64,000 nucleotides of DNA from Eledone cirrhosa. Its lineage: Eukaryota. The notes under the pieces were generated by a model. It saw only the letters and a program-made list of their open reading frames with translations. It made no database searches and was not told where the DNA came from. Where the stretch lies: positions 369,954,001 through 370,018,000 of the forward strand of contig OZ024741.1 of NCBI GenBank assembly GCA_964016885.1, read 5' to 3'. A program made the position numbers and the translations under genes. Shown here piece after piece: positions 1,655-62,615 of the stretch (positions are counted from its first letter, which is position 1; every line of letters starts with the position of its first letter).

Positions 1655-1870
1655 ATATACACGGGTGTGTATGATTGTGTATAGAAGATTACATTAATAA
1701 AAGGAATTCCAACTTTGTCTGATTTACTCGTTTTATTTACAATCCTTTAAAATTTATAATGGTATTAGAATGAAATAGTATGGTAGAATATTTAATTCTA
1801 AGTGTTAATTGAACAAGTACTTTCATGCTTTCGCAATCTTCAGGTTCATATTCTGTGGTGACAATCAAGT
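1655..1870 (-). mobile_element. TA-anchored element family E (further copies 27150-27268, 27398-27605, 27627-27788)
   Basis: Near-identical sequence at four loci, adjacent to (TA)n/(GA)n; carries an HHR-like motif. Confidence 0.8.
1810..1848 (-). ncRNA. Hammerhead ribozyme-like motif lacking stem II (family E; copy at 27552-27590)
   Basis: Minus strand UGAAC CUGAAGA UUGC GAAA GCAUGAAAGUAC UU GUUCA; stem I UGAAC/GUUCA. Confidence 0.6.
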
Positions 1871-2159
1871 TTGCAATTTTCAACTGTGAAAATTGCACAC
1901 AGGAATGGGATATAAGATCACCTGCTGAAGGGGAAAAAGCAGGAGAACACCTATGAGTCATGACATAGGAAGGCTTAGTTCCCTTATAGCATTGGTTCCC
2001 CCAAAGTCTTTTTTTTCTGGGCCTCCTTTCGGAATGAACATTTTCTCGCGCCCCACCAAATTTTATGCGAGGAAAATATCACAATGATAAAATCGGTCGA
2101 AAATTATTTGTCACTATTTATACTAGGACTCATGCACGCAATTCCATGTAATCCATAGT

Positions 2160-2357
2160 AATTGTTTCTACTTTTGACACAAGGCCAGCAATTATCCCAG
2201 TGTACTTTATTTTATCAGTGGTACTTTATTTTATCGACCCCGTAAAGATGATAGGCAAAGTTAACCTCCGCGGGATTTGAACACAGATCATATTGGGCCG
2301 TAACTCTATGCTGCAAAGCATGGCATCCGACCCTCTACCGATACTGCCAATCCACCG
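2160..2357 (-). mobile_element. Meta-domain-like SINE
   Basis: Reverse complement of the SINE consensus including head GGATTGGCAGTATCGGTAGAGGGTCGG. Confidence 0.85.
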
Positions 2358-3428
2358 ATATGAGACAACATAATACACACCTTAACAGAGCTCACACACA
2401 CACACACACACCGTAACAGCACGCGATACACAGACCTTAACACAGCTTACATACACATACACACATGCACGTACTTTAACACAACACAGCACATACACAT
2501 ACACAGAAGATGTGTGTGTGTGTTGTGCTGGATTTCTGTCAAATCCTACGACGAGCGTTCAACGAAACAGTCTATCCGAAAATAAAAATGTAAATTTTGA
2601 AATCATATTTATCTTTGGCATATTTGTTTTTTGAAGCTCTTTCTAAATCTTTCATTGTCTTTCAATCATACCGCCTTACCTGCTATCATCTTCCGCCGAA
2701 CCTATGAGGCACGCCGCACCGTTTCGGGAAAGACTTGTTTGATGGCAGATTTTCCTCTGAAGATCCTCCTGGTCTCGCTCACTCCGTCGTCAGTTTTCAC
2801 CAGCTCTCTCTCTCTCTCTCTCTCTCTCTCTCTCTCTCTCTATATATATATATATATATATATATATATATATATATATATATATATATATATATATATA
2901 TATATACACACATATATATATATATATATAGTAATAATAATAAATTTGAAGACTAAAATCCAAAGAGGGCTCGATAAGGATAAATATATATCAGTATATA
3001 TATATATATATATATATATATATATATACACACACACACATATATATAAATATATATATATATATATATATATATATATATATATATATATATGCGTGTG
3101 TGTGTGTGTTTGTTTATACATGTGCATACACACGAGTTGCTAAAGCATCGGATTAGAAATGACTCAGTATTTATTCTAGCTCATTGCACATTCAGTTCAA
3201 ATATTGGCAAGGTCAATTTTGCCTTTCATCCTTTTGCGGTAGATAAATTGAGCAACAATGCAGTAATGGGGGTCGATTACCCTTCTCTCGTTCTCTCTCC
3301 CTCGTGCCTACACACACACACACACACACACACACACACACACACGCATATATATATATATATATATATATATATATATATATATATATATATATATATA
3401 TATATATATATATATATATATATATATA

Positions 3429-3608
3429 TAACAAAGAGGGTGTGGTAAGATACCAGGTGGACCATAACGCTCCAAAGTACTCACAGTTCTGATCTAGCTG
3501 TCGAAACGGCCGGACCTCAGCCATCGGGTCCTGACTCTTTTCCTATTACCCACTCTCTTACCCTAAGCATCGGGTACTCCAGTTTTTTAACCATACTTTC
3601 TTTGTTAT
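3429..3608. mobile_element. Family A fold-back element in (TA)n
   Basis: Left arm ACAAAGAGGGTGTGGTAAG... is the reverse complement of the family 3' end; right arm carries the HHR 3' half GAAACGGC..GCC. Confidence 0.75.
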
Positions 3609-3679
3609 ATTTATATATATATATATATATATATATATATATATATATATATATATATATATATATATATATATATATA

Positions 3680-59470: not shown

Positions 59471-59479
59471 GGTAATTTT

Positions 59480-59813
59480 TTTTCTTGTAGTGTCAGTCAC
59501 TGATGTTATTTATTTGGAAAGCCGCTACCTGCAGCCTTAGATATTCTGGACGTATCGAAGGGTTCTTGCTGTTCCCTGCAAGCATGCCTTTTGAAGTGCT
59601 CCAAAAAAGGGGGCTGGACTAATGCTCTTTAACCATCCTTGAAAACTCTTAGAGATAGTGCCTAGTGTTCCTATGACAATCGGGGTGACCTTGATCTCAT
59701 GTCAATCCCAAATCCCTTTTAATTCCCACTTTAAATCCTGGTATCGGTTAATCTTCTCCTTCTCCTTTTCTTGCACTCTTGTGTAAAAGGGGCAGACTAC
59801 ATCTACAATCAGG
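59480..59813 (-). mobile_element. R4/Dong-like 3' fragment
   Basis: Minus-strand LIVDVVCPF.TRVQEKEKEKINRYQDLKWELK.IW...IKVTPIVIGTLG..LQKACL; homologous to 31125-31455. Confidence 0.82.
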
Positions 59814-60059
59814 TATTATTATTTGGGGATTGGCAGTATCAGTAGAGGGTCGGACGCATAGAGTTACGTCCCTTTACGGTCTGAGTTCAAATCTCGCCGA
59901 GATTAACTTTGCCTTTCATCCTTACGGGGTCCATAAAATAAAGTACCAGTAATACACTGGCATAATTGCTGGCCTTGTGACAAAAATACAAATAACTATT
60001 TTATTAATATTCTTTATTGTATGTTTTTGGTACTAAAACATCACTGCACTTCACCACTT

Positions 60060-60400
60060 TAAATCATAGACAGCGTACAATTTGAAGAGTTCTCGCCTGC
60101 GTTCCAAAGGTTAGATCTCAATATGACTGAGGATCTCTCATTGCGAGCTCACATCCTAAACATAGATAGAACTGCATCTAACATACTGGTTCTTCTCTTC
60201 AGAGTCAGAAAATACTTCAGCTCCAAACAAATTCTGATCCTCTACAATGTTCAAGTAGGTGCCACAATAGAGTAGTGATTTCAAGTCGGGAGAGACACTG
60301 TTGCCAAACATACATTCTAGACTACATCCACAAAAAGGTCACTGACAGACATTCTCCAACCTCTCCCCCACATATCTACCGCTACTGCAAGAGCTGGCTG
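60060..60400 (+). mobile_element. Old CR1/Jockey-group LINE fragment
   Basis: LFRVRKYFSSKQILILYNVQV.ATIE resembles the post-RT L..LYK..VRP..EY region. Confidence 0.5.
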
Positions 60401-62359
60401 TCTGTCTGACCTAATGCCACTTTCACACAAGCAATCCCATCTCATTCGTATTTCCTCCTCTTAGCATTCATATTGTGTACAAAACCCAGACCTCGCTCTC
60501 ACCCCTGCGCCCTATCCTTCCTCTACAGAAAGCCATTTTTCTGGAGTCTGCATAGGTCTTAGGTACAGTCCTTTCCTCCAAAATAAGCCCGGCCACACGC
60601 GAAAAAAGGACGCGAAAATTTCTAATTGGAAGTGAATTAAAAGTAATATGTATTGAATATCGTTTAACGTATATATATATATATATATATATATATACCC
60701 GGACCCCTGGAGTGATGGTAAGATCCAGTATTTGGGTTTCTGCGGCTCCATAAGCCATTTACTGTCCGCTTACGTAAAGGATGTTAGGCTTCTGGTAGGG
60801 TGACCGAACTAGGAGGACGCGTTGTCAACGGGATTCAGTTCGATAGTCTACATAAATGTGTCTGTTACTGACCCCACGTGGAGTTCAGCAAGGGAGGCAA
60901 CACCTGTATTAGGCGAATGAATTCAGTTGTGTATAATATTGCGAAAATACAAAATATCACAAATCGAATAAAGCTCTCGACAGATATATATATATATATC
61001 GAGTGAGTTCTGTCGGCCAGGTGTACCGAAAACGATAAGTTGTAATAAAATGAAAACGAAATTTCATTTCTCACTCTTAGTACGGCACTTACTTAAATGT
61101 AAGTATGTATGTATACGTACATACATATATGTATACAGATGTACAGTAGCATGCATATATATATATATATATATATATATATATATACATACAGAAGGGT
61201 ATATATATATATATATATATATATATATACATGGCAGAAGGGTATACGGTGCTGATGATACCTAACAAGCTTGAAACTAGTACATCGTTCCTGTGTCAGT
61301 GTTGAACAAAAAGGTGACGTGGTTGTCTTAACACCGTACGGCATAAATTCAGGCTGTTCAGTTTGTTTACAAACGAACAAAGCGGGCGTTATAATAAGCG
61401 TCCGCTAAACTGATACGTACATTGGTGGAGAGCCGTTTGTGAATAAGAGAATGAGAGTCAGACAGACAGACTACGCACGGTAGTATATATAAATAAATAC
61501 AATCAACCGGAAATCAAAAAACCAAAACAAAAGTAGGTGTCGCATGCAGTTAAGTAAAAAATTTAGGAAACAAACCCGGATAAATGACTAGAAAACCCTA
61601 TTAAATTATTAATATTGAAAGTAAATAAAATACATAATAAGTCCATACAAATTTAGCTATGGTTTAAGTAATCAAAATCCCCTAATTTAAATATATCACT
61701 ATAAAAATATATCTGGAAAAAATGAAATATTCAACTATCAGTTGAATAACGTTATCTAATAAACAGGCTTTAAATAGAATTATGGTAGGCCAATGGGGAC
61801 AGAAACAAGAAATGTATGGAGGATATGAAAGAGCATAAAATCATAATCAACATACTGTATTGTACAATAGAAAGGAGCATAAAAGGGAATTGGATATAAT
61901 TATAGTATATTTGAAGGGGCGAGTGACAAGTAAGTATGTGTGTGCGTGGGGGGGGGGGGGTTAGTTATTCAAAGAAGAAACCAAATAAAATAAAATAGAT
62001 TAAAATAAAATATATAATCAGATATAAACTCATAAGGTGTTAATAGTGAAAATATAAAATTTAAGAAGATAGAAATGGTATGGTACCCAAAAGATTATGA
62101 AAGCTATAATGAAAAGATGTCAAAAGCCAATGATAAAAATGATGATAATGATGGTGGTAAACATAATAAAGCTTAACTAAAAGGTAAGGTAATGTAGCAG
62201 CTAATGGATACAATTTACACTTCTAGAACTTTTAGGTTTATAATAAAAGTAAGAATTTGAAATGGCGTGGGGGCAAGAAGAGAATATCTCTGACTTTCTA
62301 TTAAGTAAGGTTTCCCTAAAGAAAATACTCTAAATAAATATATATATATATATATATAT

Positions 62360-62615
62360 ATTTGTGTATAGTGGTAGCTATGGTGCTTCCGTAGTCGTGG
62401 AGTAAAAACAGCCAATGGCATGACAAGAGTGGATAGAGTGTTTTTTGAGAGATAAAATTTGCTCCGTACATAACACCCGTGTCTGAAACAACCCGCAGAA
62501 GTAGAATCAGCCAGATCCATACAAGGACCATGACCCGAGCTACCTGCCGGCGAAACATTTGTAACACGAAATAAACTAAGTCCAGATGCATCACTGATTT
62601 TTCGTTTTCTTTATA
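62360..62615. mobile_element. Family H head-to-head insertion with degenerate long-stem-II HHR (62478-62568)
   Basis: CGUGU CUGAAAC...GAAAC AUUU GUA ACACG; left arm resembles the reverse complement of 18290-18370. Confidence 0.7.

Follow-up and report, generated by a model that had tools for sequence, protein, structure and literature searches.

Hammerhead-bearing islands in (TA)n tracts of Eledone cirrhosa: probable ends of Penelope-like elements and retrozyme-like units

A stretch of 64,000 nucleotides (nt) from Eledone cirrhosa (contig OZ024741.1, positions 369954001-370018000 within a genome of 3.0 Gb; hereafter, the window) contains many (TA)n tracts separated by short islands with hammerhead ribozyme (HHR) motifs. 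The question raised by this locus is what these islands are and what carried them into the microsatellites. The initial annotation described more than 12 families of mini-retroelements, either retrozyme-like or made only of the pseudo-long terminal repeat (pLTR) of a Penelope-like element (PLE), mobilised by PLEs and targeted to TA. Our results agree with the two kinds of product, the mobilisation by PLEs and the targeting, but not with more than 12 mini-retroelement families: eleven families appear to be PLE ends, and three are retrozyme-like. We consider it probable (roughly 0.8) that the islands are insertions into (TA)n, most of them 5'-truncated PLE 3' ends, and that the three retrozyme-like units were likely copied in trans by the same class of enzyme.

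Hammerhead islands and coding Penelope-like elements

With a strict type I descriptor, eight complete HHR motifs were found in the window, against a mean of 0.07 (maximum 2) in 200 block dinucleotide shuffles; a relaxed descriptor gave 14 motifs scoring at least 10, against 0.96 in 25 shuffles. Motif frequency is thus far above that of shuffled sequence, a check that the initial annotation had proposed. Both scans recovered the type I core (CUGANGA, GAAA and UH, with stems I-III in type I order).

Strict HHR cores: 7445, 8671, 10513, 10968, 14800 and 51591 (+); 11377 and 1843 (-).

Homology mapping, which takes in arms cut inside stem I and decayed copies, gave 33 arms with a core block (canonical or family variant) and the family GAAA block, and 15 arms with the GAAA half alone; some rows labelled B are artefacts from a stacked tail in the reference. 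Together with self-BLAST, it distinguished about 21 HHR families. Thus, the islands between TA tracts are repeated HHR families, as had been claimed, and the earlier figures of more than 12 families and about 20 motifs are undercounts. Family letters are our own, and those of the initial annotation could not be matched to them. Its "singletons" are single within the window only; first-look candidates numbered 1689 for the island at 7441, 1764 for that at 14795 and 2019 for that at 51583. Many of the HHRs are not minimal; in several, stem II is 50-90 nt long or stem III is complete. Self-pairing of single HHRs was mostly unremarkable (z 0.1 to -3.0, seven motifs). The Rfam scan gave no match at the gathering threshold in the window, and its E-value version no HHR among 150 listed of 410 rows, where TA-repeat microRNA models dominated. 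A permutation scan for type-SGC HHRs (S-G-C block order, pseudoknotted stems), made with strict thresholds and perfect cores and so not covering variant cores, found none; type I order alone appeared, once in the window and nine times in 600 kb.

We assigned eleven island families to PLE ends, three to retrozyme-like units and five to neither class, in addition to two coding elements, PLE1 and PLE2. Judging from the frames found upstream, each of the eleven is an ordinary 3' end of a coding PLE, truncated on its 5' side and often inverted; their window copies are taken as 5'-truncated because longer copies run upstream into reverse transcriptase (RT) and GIY-YIG endonuclease (EN) frames. An open reading frame (ORF) link for each family, another check proposed earlier, was obtained for these eleven, but not for the units of families E, S and M. 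Loci numbered with L are fetched genome copies, the 20-30 best matches per family to the window copies. The predicted assignments are as follows.

Family A: 48139-48464 (+) and a two-armed insertion, 8408-8648 (-)/8650-8866 (+); 3' end of a coding PLE; HHR core 48220; 3' ends +150/+210; GIY-YIG motif about 450 nt upstream in 8/30 loci; ORF pieces with DKS motif, CX4CxxC linker and CCHH.
Family B: 23710-24188 (+), 3829-4185 (+) and 40871-41370; sister of A; HHR core 23897, stem I with an internal loop; L033/L256 and L159 have GIY-YIG upstream.
Family C: 28138-28453 (+), about 11 insertions (3430-3605, 3681-3793, 8929-9057, 13880-14069, 17803-18028, 24217-24269, 28138-28453, 29019-29074, 29553-29699, 40107-40270, 56961-57165); Hydra PLE 3' end; C1 HHR with U3-A8 core and 65-nt stem II, folding into a three-way junction (z -2.96); ends +17/+97; for C1, GIY-YIG about 1.2 kb upstream in 5/30 loci, with DKT and CxCX5C.
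Family D: 1639-1887 (-) and three pieces in 27148-27786 (-); Neptune-type PLE 3' end; HHR core 1843; GIY-YIG upstream in 2/30 loci.
Family G: 51506-51662 (+), 11282-11400 (-) and 24733-24831 (+); its 51583 subfamily is the 3' end of a Hydra PLE; in L342, L344 and L362, EN lies 650-850 nt upstream.
Family H: 15017-15258 (+), 1415-1514 (-), 2927-3002 (-) and 47940-48127 (-); Hydra PLE 3' end; core CAGAAGA (U4A); ends +25/+115; linked via L154 and L164.
Family I: 62362-62622 (+) and 18079-18368; probable Hydra PLE 3' end; core with one A inserted behind A6; stem II long; in 2/4 fetched loci EN was found, 2.6 kb upstream in L309 and inverted in L314.
Family J: 18383-18841 (+); two-armed Hydra PLE 3' end; core CCGUCGA (U4C, A6U); ends +52/+155; RT/EN 1.3-2.2 kb upstream in 4/4 fetched loci.
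Family K (23251 of the initial annotation): 23144-23314 (+); Hydra-type PLE 3' end; HHR about 190 nt past the ORF stop in L259 and L262.
Family N: 50292-50826 (+) and 41394-41631; Hydra PLE 3' end with a very long stem II; EN about 1 kb upstream in L172 and L180.
Family O: 43832-44334 (.); two-armed, probable Hydra PLE 3' end, sister of I; core CCGAGGA (U4C); ends +51/+131; EN 2.0 kb upstream in L311 (1/2 fetched loci).
PLE1: 44986-47918 (+); broken Hydra-clade PLE with DKT, RT 45211-46236, CxCX5C linker and GIY-YIG, without CCHH; its short inverted arm, 44986-45134, stops about 133 nt short of the main arm's end.
PLE2: 52698-54692 (+); decayed 5'-truncated PLE with YIDD RT motif and minimal HHR core 54583.

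Both PLE1 and PLE2 end in TA tracts, in agreement with the setting noted for them earlier. By motifs compared by eye with published supplement text (PMC8557442), rather than by a tree, C1, G, H, I, J, K, N, O and PLE1 are placed in the Hydra clade; here and below, statements on published papers refer to the sections cited. The Hydra motif set (DKT, CxCX5C, no CCHH, C-terminal EN) is complete in PLE1, C1 and J, and was read in part in H, N, G, I, O and K. The group also has the (TA)n insertion and the HHR near the 3' end, and identity among the RTs of six Hydra-type families is 39-54%. Families A and B resemble Nematis in motifs matched by eye with Nematis rows, again without a tree. In family D, a stop-free frame of 775 amino acids (aa) at L254:3862-6186 matched Pfam RVT_1 (E 2.4e-6, below the cut-off) and GIY-YIG (E 3.4e-6, above the cut-off) and contains the Neptune set of DKG, CX2-5CxxC linker and CCHH, with RT followed by GIY-YIG in one frame. 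Its Neptune rather than Nematis assignment rests on linker length, not on a tree, and the intact frame suggests recent activity. This frame alone scored in Pfam: all PLE pieces of the window were missed, with no relevant hit in nine proteins, as were four further locus pieces. A genome search with the G copy at 11282-11400 returned nothing, a result that is uninformative for a set of common AT-rich words.

Retrozyme-like units of families E, S and M

Families E, S and M appear from their DNA to be circularly permuted, ORF-less, retrozyme-like units of 455, 472 and 544 nt, respectively.

Family E: 10277-11242 (+) and 60996-61422; unit of 455 nt bounded by cleavage sites predicted after 10543 and 10998, with a TA tract inside; 10277-10469 is the inverted arm.
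Family S (14795 of the initial annotation): 14456-14953 (+); 472-nt unit; 53-nt stem II; inverted arm 14456-14597; ends +77/+191.
Family M: 42452-43373 (-); unit of 544 nt, with the reading continuing past one full turn; HHR core at 42800; 43075-43373 is the inverted arm; ends +192/+285.

At many unrelated loci, each unit is preceded by its own 3' end, joined at a constant junction. The arm exceeds 1.05 units in 25/30 E loci (five of them exceeding 2 units), 16/20 M loci and 10/30 S loci, and the longest reaches 3.66 units. Two consecutive units with complete HHRs, the criterion of Li et al. (2026, 10.64898/2026.07.22.740005), were found for E (11 units in 30 loci) and S (L147 and L140), and in none of 20 M loci. 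The GC content is low (E 0.34, S 0.30), and the longest frames are 61 aa (an ATG frame in E) and 58 aa (S), as measured in E and one deleted S unit. Folded as circles, the units of E and S score well (z -11.8 for E, inflated by the internal TA tract, and -4.0 for S). The GIY-YIG motif was not found upstream in 30 E and 30 S loci. With tblastn, a PLE protein was detected within 3 kb upstream in 2/58 E, 1/32 S and 0/25 M loci; because these proteins come from differing families, we read them as stacking of insertions. A search for RNA data sets carrying family E listed none; its sequence was abundant in contigs of one of four unlabelled runs and present in trace in two, which says nothing on expression.

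Insertion ends, TA tracts and genome density

Two fixed 3' ends, 52-114 nt apart, were found in all 11 families measured, which include both PLE ends and retrozymes. They lie 10-296 nt past the cleavage site, and the previously described order of HHR, tail and (TA)n was confirmed. Among 147 back-to-back insertions, 134 combined a long with a short end, three were long+long, three short+short, and seven had an off-site end, whereas random pairing would give long+short in about half. The retrozymes follow the same pattern (32/37; E 13/16, S 10/12, M 9/9). Either arm can extend more (57 against 40, with 37 ties), which fits two independent syntheses. Furthermore, where the template continuation is known, all 14 start sites chosen are followed by alternating T/A of 3-7 nt; among 2381 background positions, the share is 7.9%.

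The share of TA tracts is 9.0% in the window and 3.5% in 600 kb sampled outside it. All fetched DNA contained 45 HHR clusters, 24 of them with at least two members. In the 600-kb outside sample, a TA tract lay within 300 nt downstream of 32/45 HHR motifs and upstream of 15/45, against 14% of 5546 random positions; the TA enrichment that the initial annotation expected at 3' ends was thus observed. Conversely, a family 3' end abuts 82 of the 243 TA tracts of at least 20 nt in that sample, and their 486 flanks included 92 family ends in sense and eight in antisense.

To estimate density, 80 stretches of 10 kb were taken at round coordinates of large contigs, small contigs being left out. They contained 58 perfect-core HHR motifs (2.6 in 15 shuffles), or about 69 per Mb and 207,000 genome-wide, with a wide bootstrap interval of 125,000-301,000 for this 800-kb sample. 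The two subsamples were unequal (35 motifs in 600 kb and 23 in 200 kb), and the window, with ten perfect-core motifs, has about twice the sample density. In axolotl, 126,247 type I motifs were reported with a different descriptor (PMC7229834).

Five families and the subfamily C2 were assigned to neither class, the genome sample being the 800 kb described above.

Family 7441: 7441-7575 (+); complete HHR with full stem III; tail like Hydra tails by eye.
Family 9326: 9255-9345 (-); HHR arm.
Family R: 24300-24500 (.); two-armed half-HHR.
Family Q: 54880-55564 (.); two-armed; core CCGAAGA at 55417.
Family P (57916 of the initial annotation): 57820-57950 (-); minimal HHR.

For family 7441, no ORF link was found in 25 loci, which share a 5' extent of at most 566 nt; in L262, a Hydra ORF at first seemed linked to it, but this link was rejected because a TA tract and family K separate the two. 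Other islands between TA tracts are at 28525-28900, 40520-40780, 60700-60980, 20330-20560 and 16220-16430; the first three matched one to five of the fetched loci. A two-copy repeat (23314-23592 and 58033-58302, 75% alike) has a CTGATGA word with no completed hammerhead.

Several families have fixed variant cores: U3-A8 in C1 (37/48 copies), U4A in H (34/42), an extra A after A6 in I (17 copies), U4C in O (18 copies) and U4C with A6U in J (14/19). The window's Q copy also has a variant core. Of these, U3-A8 and, with low activity, the A6 insertion and U4C were already known from nature (PMC3088659). A literature search for U4A or the combination of J found none, which is a weak test. The covariation that the initial annotation had asked for was detected in alignments collected by homology, independently of the descriptor, with statistics that ignore relatedness of rows. 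It was strongest in family G, in which 8/20 pairs change on both sides (7/9 in stem II; score reached by 0/500 shuffles), and weaker in 7441 (3/12 pairs) and E (1/12 pairs, in four states). A hairpin-like tail motif, ACTCT...ATYGAGT(A/G)C, lies between the two start sites in C1, I and O only of the 11 families and is a candidate RT recognition element; by eye, 7441, J and R have a similar sequence.

The rest of the window includes the following.

SINE-like (short interspersed element) family, more than 20 copies, not tied to TA and presumably a known octopus SINE: 679-858, 2154-2361, 7024-7226, 16881-17573, 21143-21448, 22385-22660, 31474-31844, 35750-37056, 58928-60007.
Second SINE-like family, tRNA-like head: 11508-11766, 21531-21846, 24853-25022, 38753-38952, 58599-58891.
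Decayed LINE-like (long interspersed element) frames, RTE-like by eye: 30293-31400 and 51800-52450; no relevant Pfam hit for 30293-30862.
5918-6790: GC-richer fragment, possibly a LINE 3' end; repeat tail at its end similar to 900-980.
11760-12580: long CCAA-based low-complexity array.

Proposed mechanism, alternatives and known systems

Our proposed explanation of the features read directly from the DNA, namely the ORF links, the circular permutation, the two fixed 3' ends, the long+short pairing and the TA-like sequence past the start sites, is as follows. The PLE GIY-YIG endonuclease would nick both strands of a TA tract, and each nicked 3' end would anneal to a short UA-rich spot in the template and prime reverse transcription. 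Two reverse transcriptions would begin at two internal sites and be joined tail to tail, and early termination would leave the HHR-plus-tail stubs. Later insertions could stack in the same TA stretch, because each insertion leaves TA on both sides. The HHR may cleave retrozyme RNA into monomers, which would then form circles that are copied for more than one turn. The retrozymes show the same footprint as the PLE ends and thus likely borrow the PLE enzyme, which would copy them in trans; HHR self-cleavage, expression and circular RNA are proposals from sequence. A bolder version, which we advance only tentatively and would not quite favour, is that retrozymes are circular RNAs copied by PLE RT from both nicked TA strands via two fixed UA-rich sites, that the long/short-end rule is general, that this genome has among the densest HHR collections (about 70 per Mb), that the high-copy families with cores fixed as U4A, U4C and U4C+A6U either cleave with help or can spread without a working ribozyme, and that the elements may seed or lengthen much of the genome's TA tracts.

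Several observations weigh against the proposal of PLE ends and retrozymes copied in trans. The ORF links of I and O depend on position in one to two loci. No retrozyme unit has sequence homology to the traced PLE loci, and no partner PLE was singled out. Within-locus units are clearly closer to one another than units of different loci in M alone (divergence 3.4-3.9% against 5.9%), not in E (5.2-7.6 against 5.1) or S (5.5-6.2 against 6.5), and rare variants are mostly unshared; a single circular template is therefore not demonstrated. An array at 7677-8345 consists of three identical head-to-tail 173-nt units and an inverted arm, also set in TA (GA/TA tracts), but has no hammerhead or Rfam ribozyme, so that an HHR within the unit is not required for multimers to form. 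In L077, another repeat, with a possible U3-A8 HHR upstream, has a 3' tail that matches about 120 nt of this array. As for the counts, E pairs ending in the internal TA tract were removed before pairs were counted; 7441 was scored at its +10 end, and the commoner short end (+21) has no TA run, which would give 13/14 start sites; the loci lean young, having been chosen as best matches to window copies; and control tracts were few, with family ends at 2/12 CA and 0/15 GA tracts. Finally, start sites of an Anolis PLE were not homologous to the target, and HHR cleavage was dispensable (PMC11167929).

If all families including E, S and M were ends of coding PLEs, their head-to-tail units would be partial tandems (pLTRs) or products of repeated template switching, and no circular RNA would be needed. 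Eleven of the 14 traced island families are PLE ends, within-locus identity shows no single template in E or S, the ribozyme-free array exists, and 20-30 best loci per family were read. However, the constant junction of E, S and M with their own 3' ends at many unrelated loci, arms of up to 3.66 units, the lack of GIY-YIG in 30 E and 30 S loci and of any PLE upstream in 25 M loci make this improbable. A possible, although on the whole unlikely, alternative is that the source from which the retrozyme-like units spread is not circles but linear transcripts reading through a few master tandem arrays, with the PLE enzyme still the carrier. E has arrays of three to four units, uncleaved RNA is the main PLE substrate in vitro (PMC11167929), and eight of nine tested Xenopus retrozymes did not cleave (10.64898/2026.07.22.740005). 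Against this, M and S never exceed two units in 20 and 30 loci, yet arms longer than one unit are common, and E and S units fold well as circles, with the TA inflation given above for E.

The literal reading of more than 12 independent non-autonomous mini-element families could accommodate the three retrozyme-like families and the five of neither class, but eleven families extend into PLE ORFs, for which it is refuted; overall, it is very improbable. We give still less credence to an origin of the inverted arms and TA flanks by later microsatellite instability, recombination or assembly error. Palindromes beside long TA tracts are generally hard to assemble; however, fold-back or assembly duplication would copy the same end, whereas the arms end at two different fixed sites in 134/147.

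The system of PLE ends and retrozyme-like units proposed here is built from known parts, HHR-bearing TA-targeted PLEs and non-LTR retrozymes. Craig et al. (2021, supplement, PMC8557442) listed a single Octopus Hydra family, Hydra-1_Obim, TA-targeted and HHR-bearing. The initial annotation knew of no description of such diversity and density in cephalopods, and we found no report of the density. The Hydra-clade PLEs share with those of the window DKT, CxCX5C, the lack of CCHH, a C-terminal GIY-YIG, an HHR near the 3' end, (TA)n targeting, an inverted truncated copy and a one-ended tail. They differ in that nine Hydra members are linked here, with six RTs 39-54% identical, that tails are 80-103 nt (five measured) against 30-40 nt, and in the long stems II and variant cores here. 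Cervera and de la Pena (2014, PMC4209133) found HHRs mostly as single motifs from truncated PLEs, including a U3-A8 variant, opposite-strand pairs 100-700 bp apart and a palindromic short stem III; the vertebrates quoted there have about 4,000-9,000 motifs against about 207,000 estimated here with a different descriptor, and the end-pairing rule does not appear in the sections cited.

Metazoan non-LTR retrozymes (PMC7229834; Li et al. 2026) are likewise low-GC, ORF-less, head-to-tail units of a few hundred nt with type I HHRs. PLE enzymes were proposed as their carriers, by Li et al. from co-occurrence and from homology to pLTRs, whereas the link here is the PLE footprint at insertions, without detectable homology, and our putative units are known from DNA alone. 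Frangieh et al. (2024, PMC11167929) showed for Poseidon_Ac in vitro an AT-rich target, cutting and extension of both strands, two internal start sites that define the tail, and a predicted dimer; those start sites are AC-rich without target homology, in contrast to the TA-like continuation of 3-7 nt here. The block order of the type-SGC permuted hammerhead (PMC10085705) was not found here in the perfect-core scan. Our literature search, mostly without subscription papers, found nothing on cephalopod retrozymes, cephalopod HHR density or an end-pairing rule, and the word "ribozyme" does not occur in the sections cited of an Octopus vulgaris repeat paper (2026, PMC13282606). We thus found no printed account of the density, of the end-pairing rule common to retrozymes, of TA-like start sites or of fixed variant cores such as these.

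Our results touch on two open questions: the way in which retrozymes are copied, and the reason for the inverted copy and one-sided tail of PLE insertions. The shared end rule provides exact predicted start sites, together with a natural intact ORF in the same genome, and the families provide natural high-copy variants of the hammerhead core. Furthermore, many seemingly unique islands and about one third of the sampled long TA tracts adjoin probable PLE products, which matters for the annotation of repeats.

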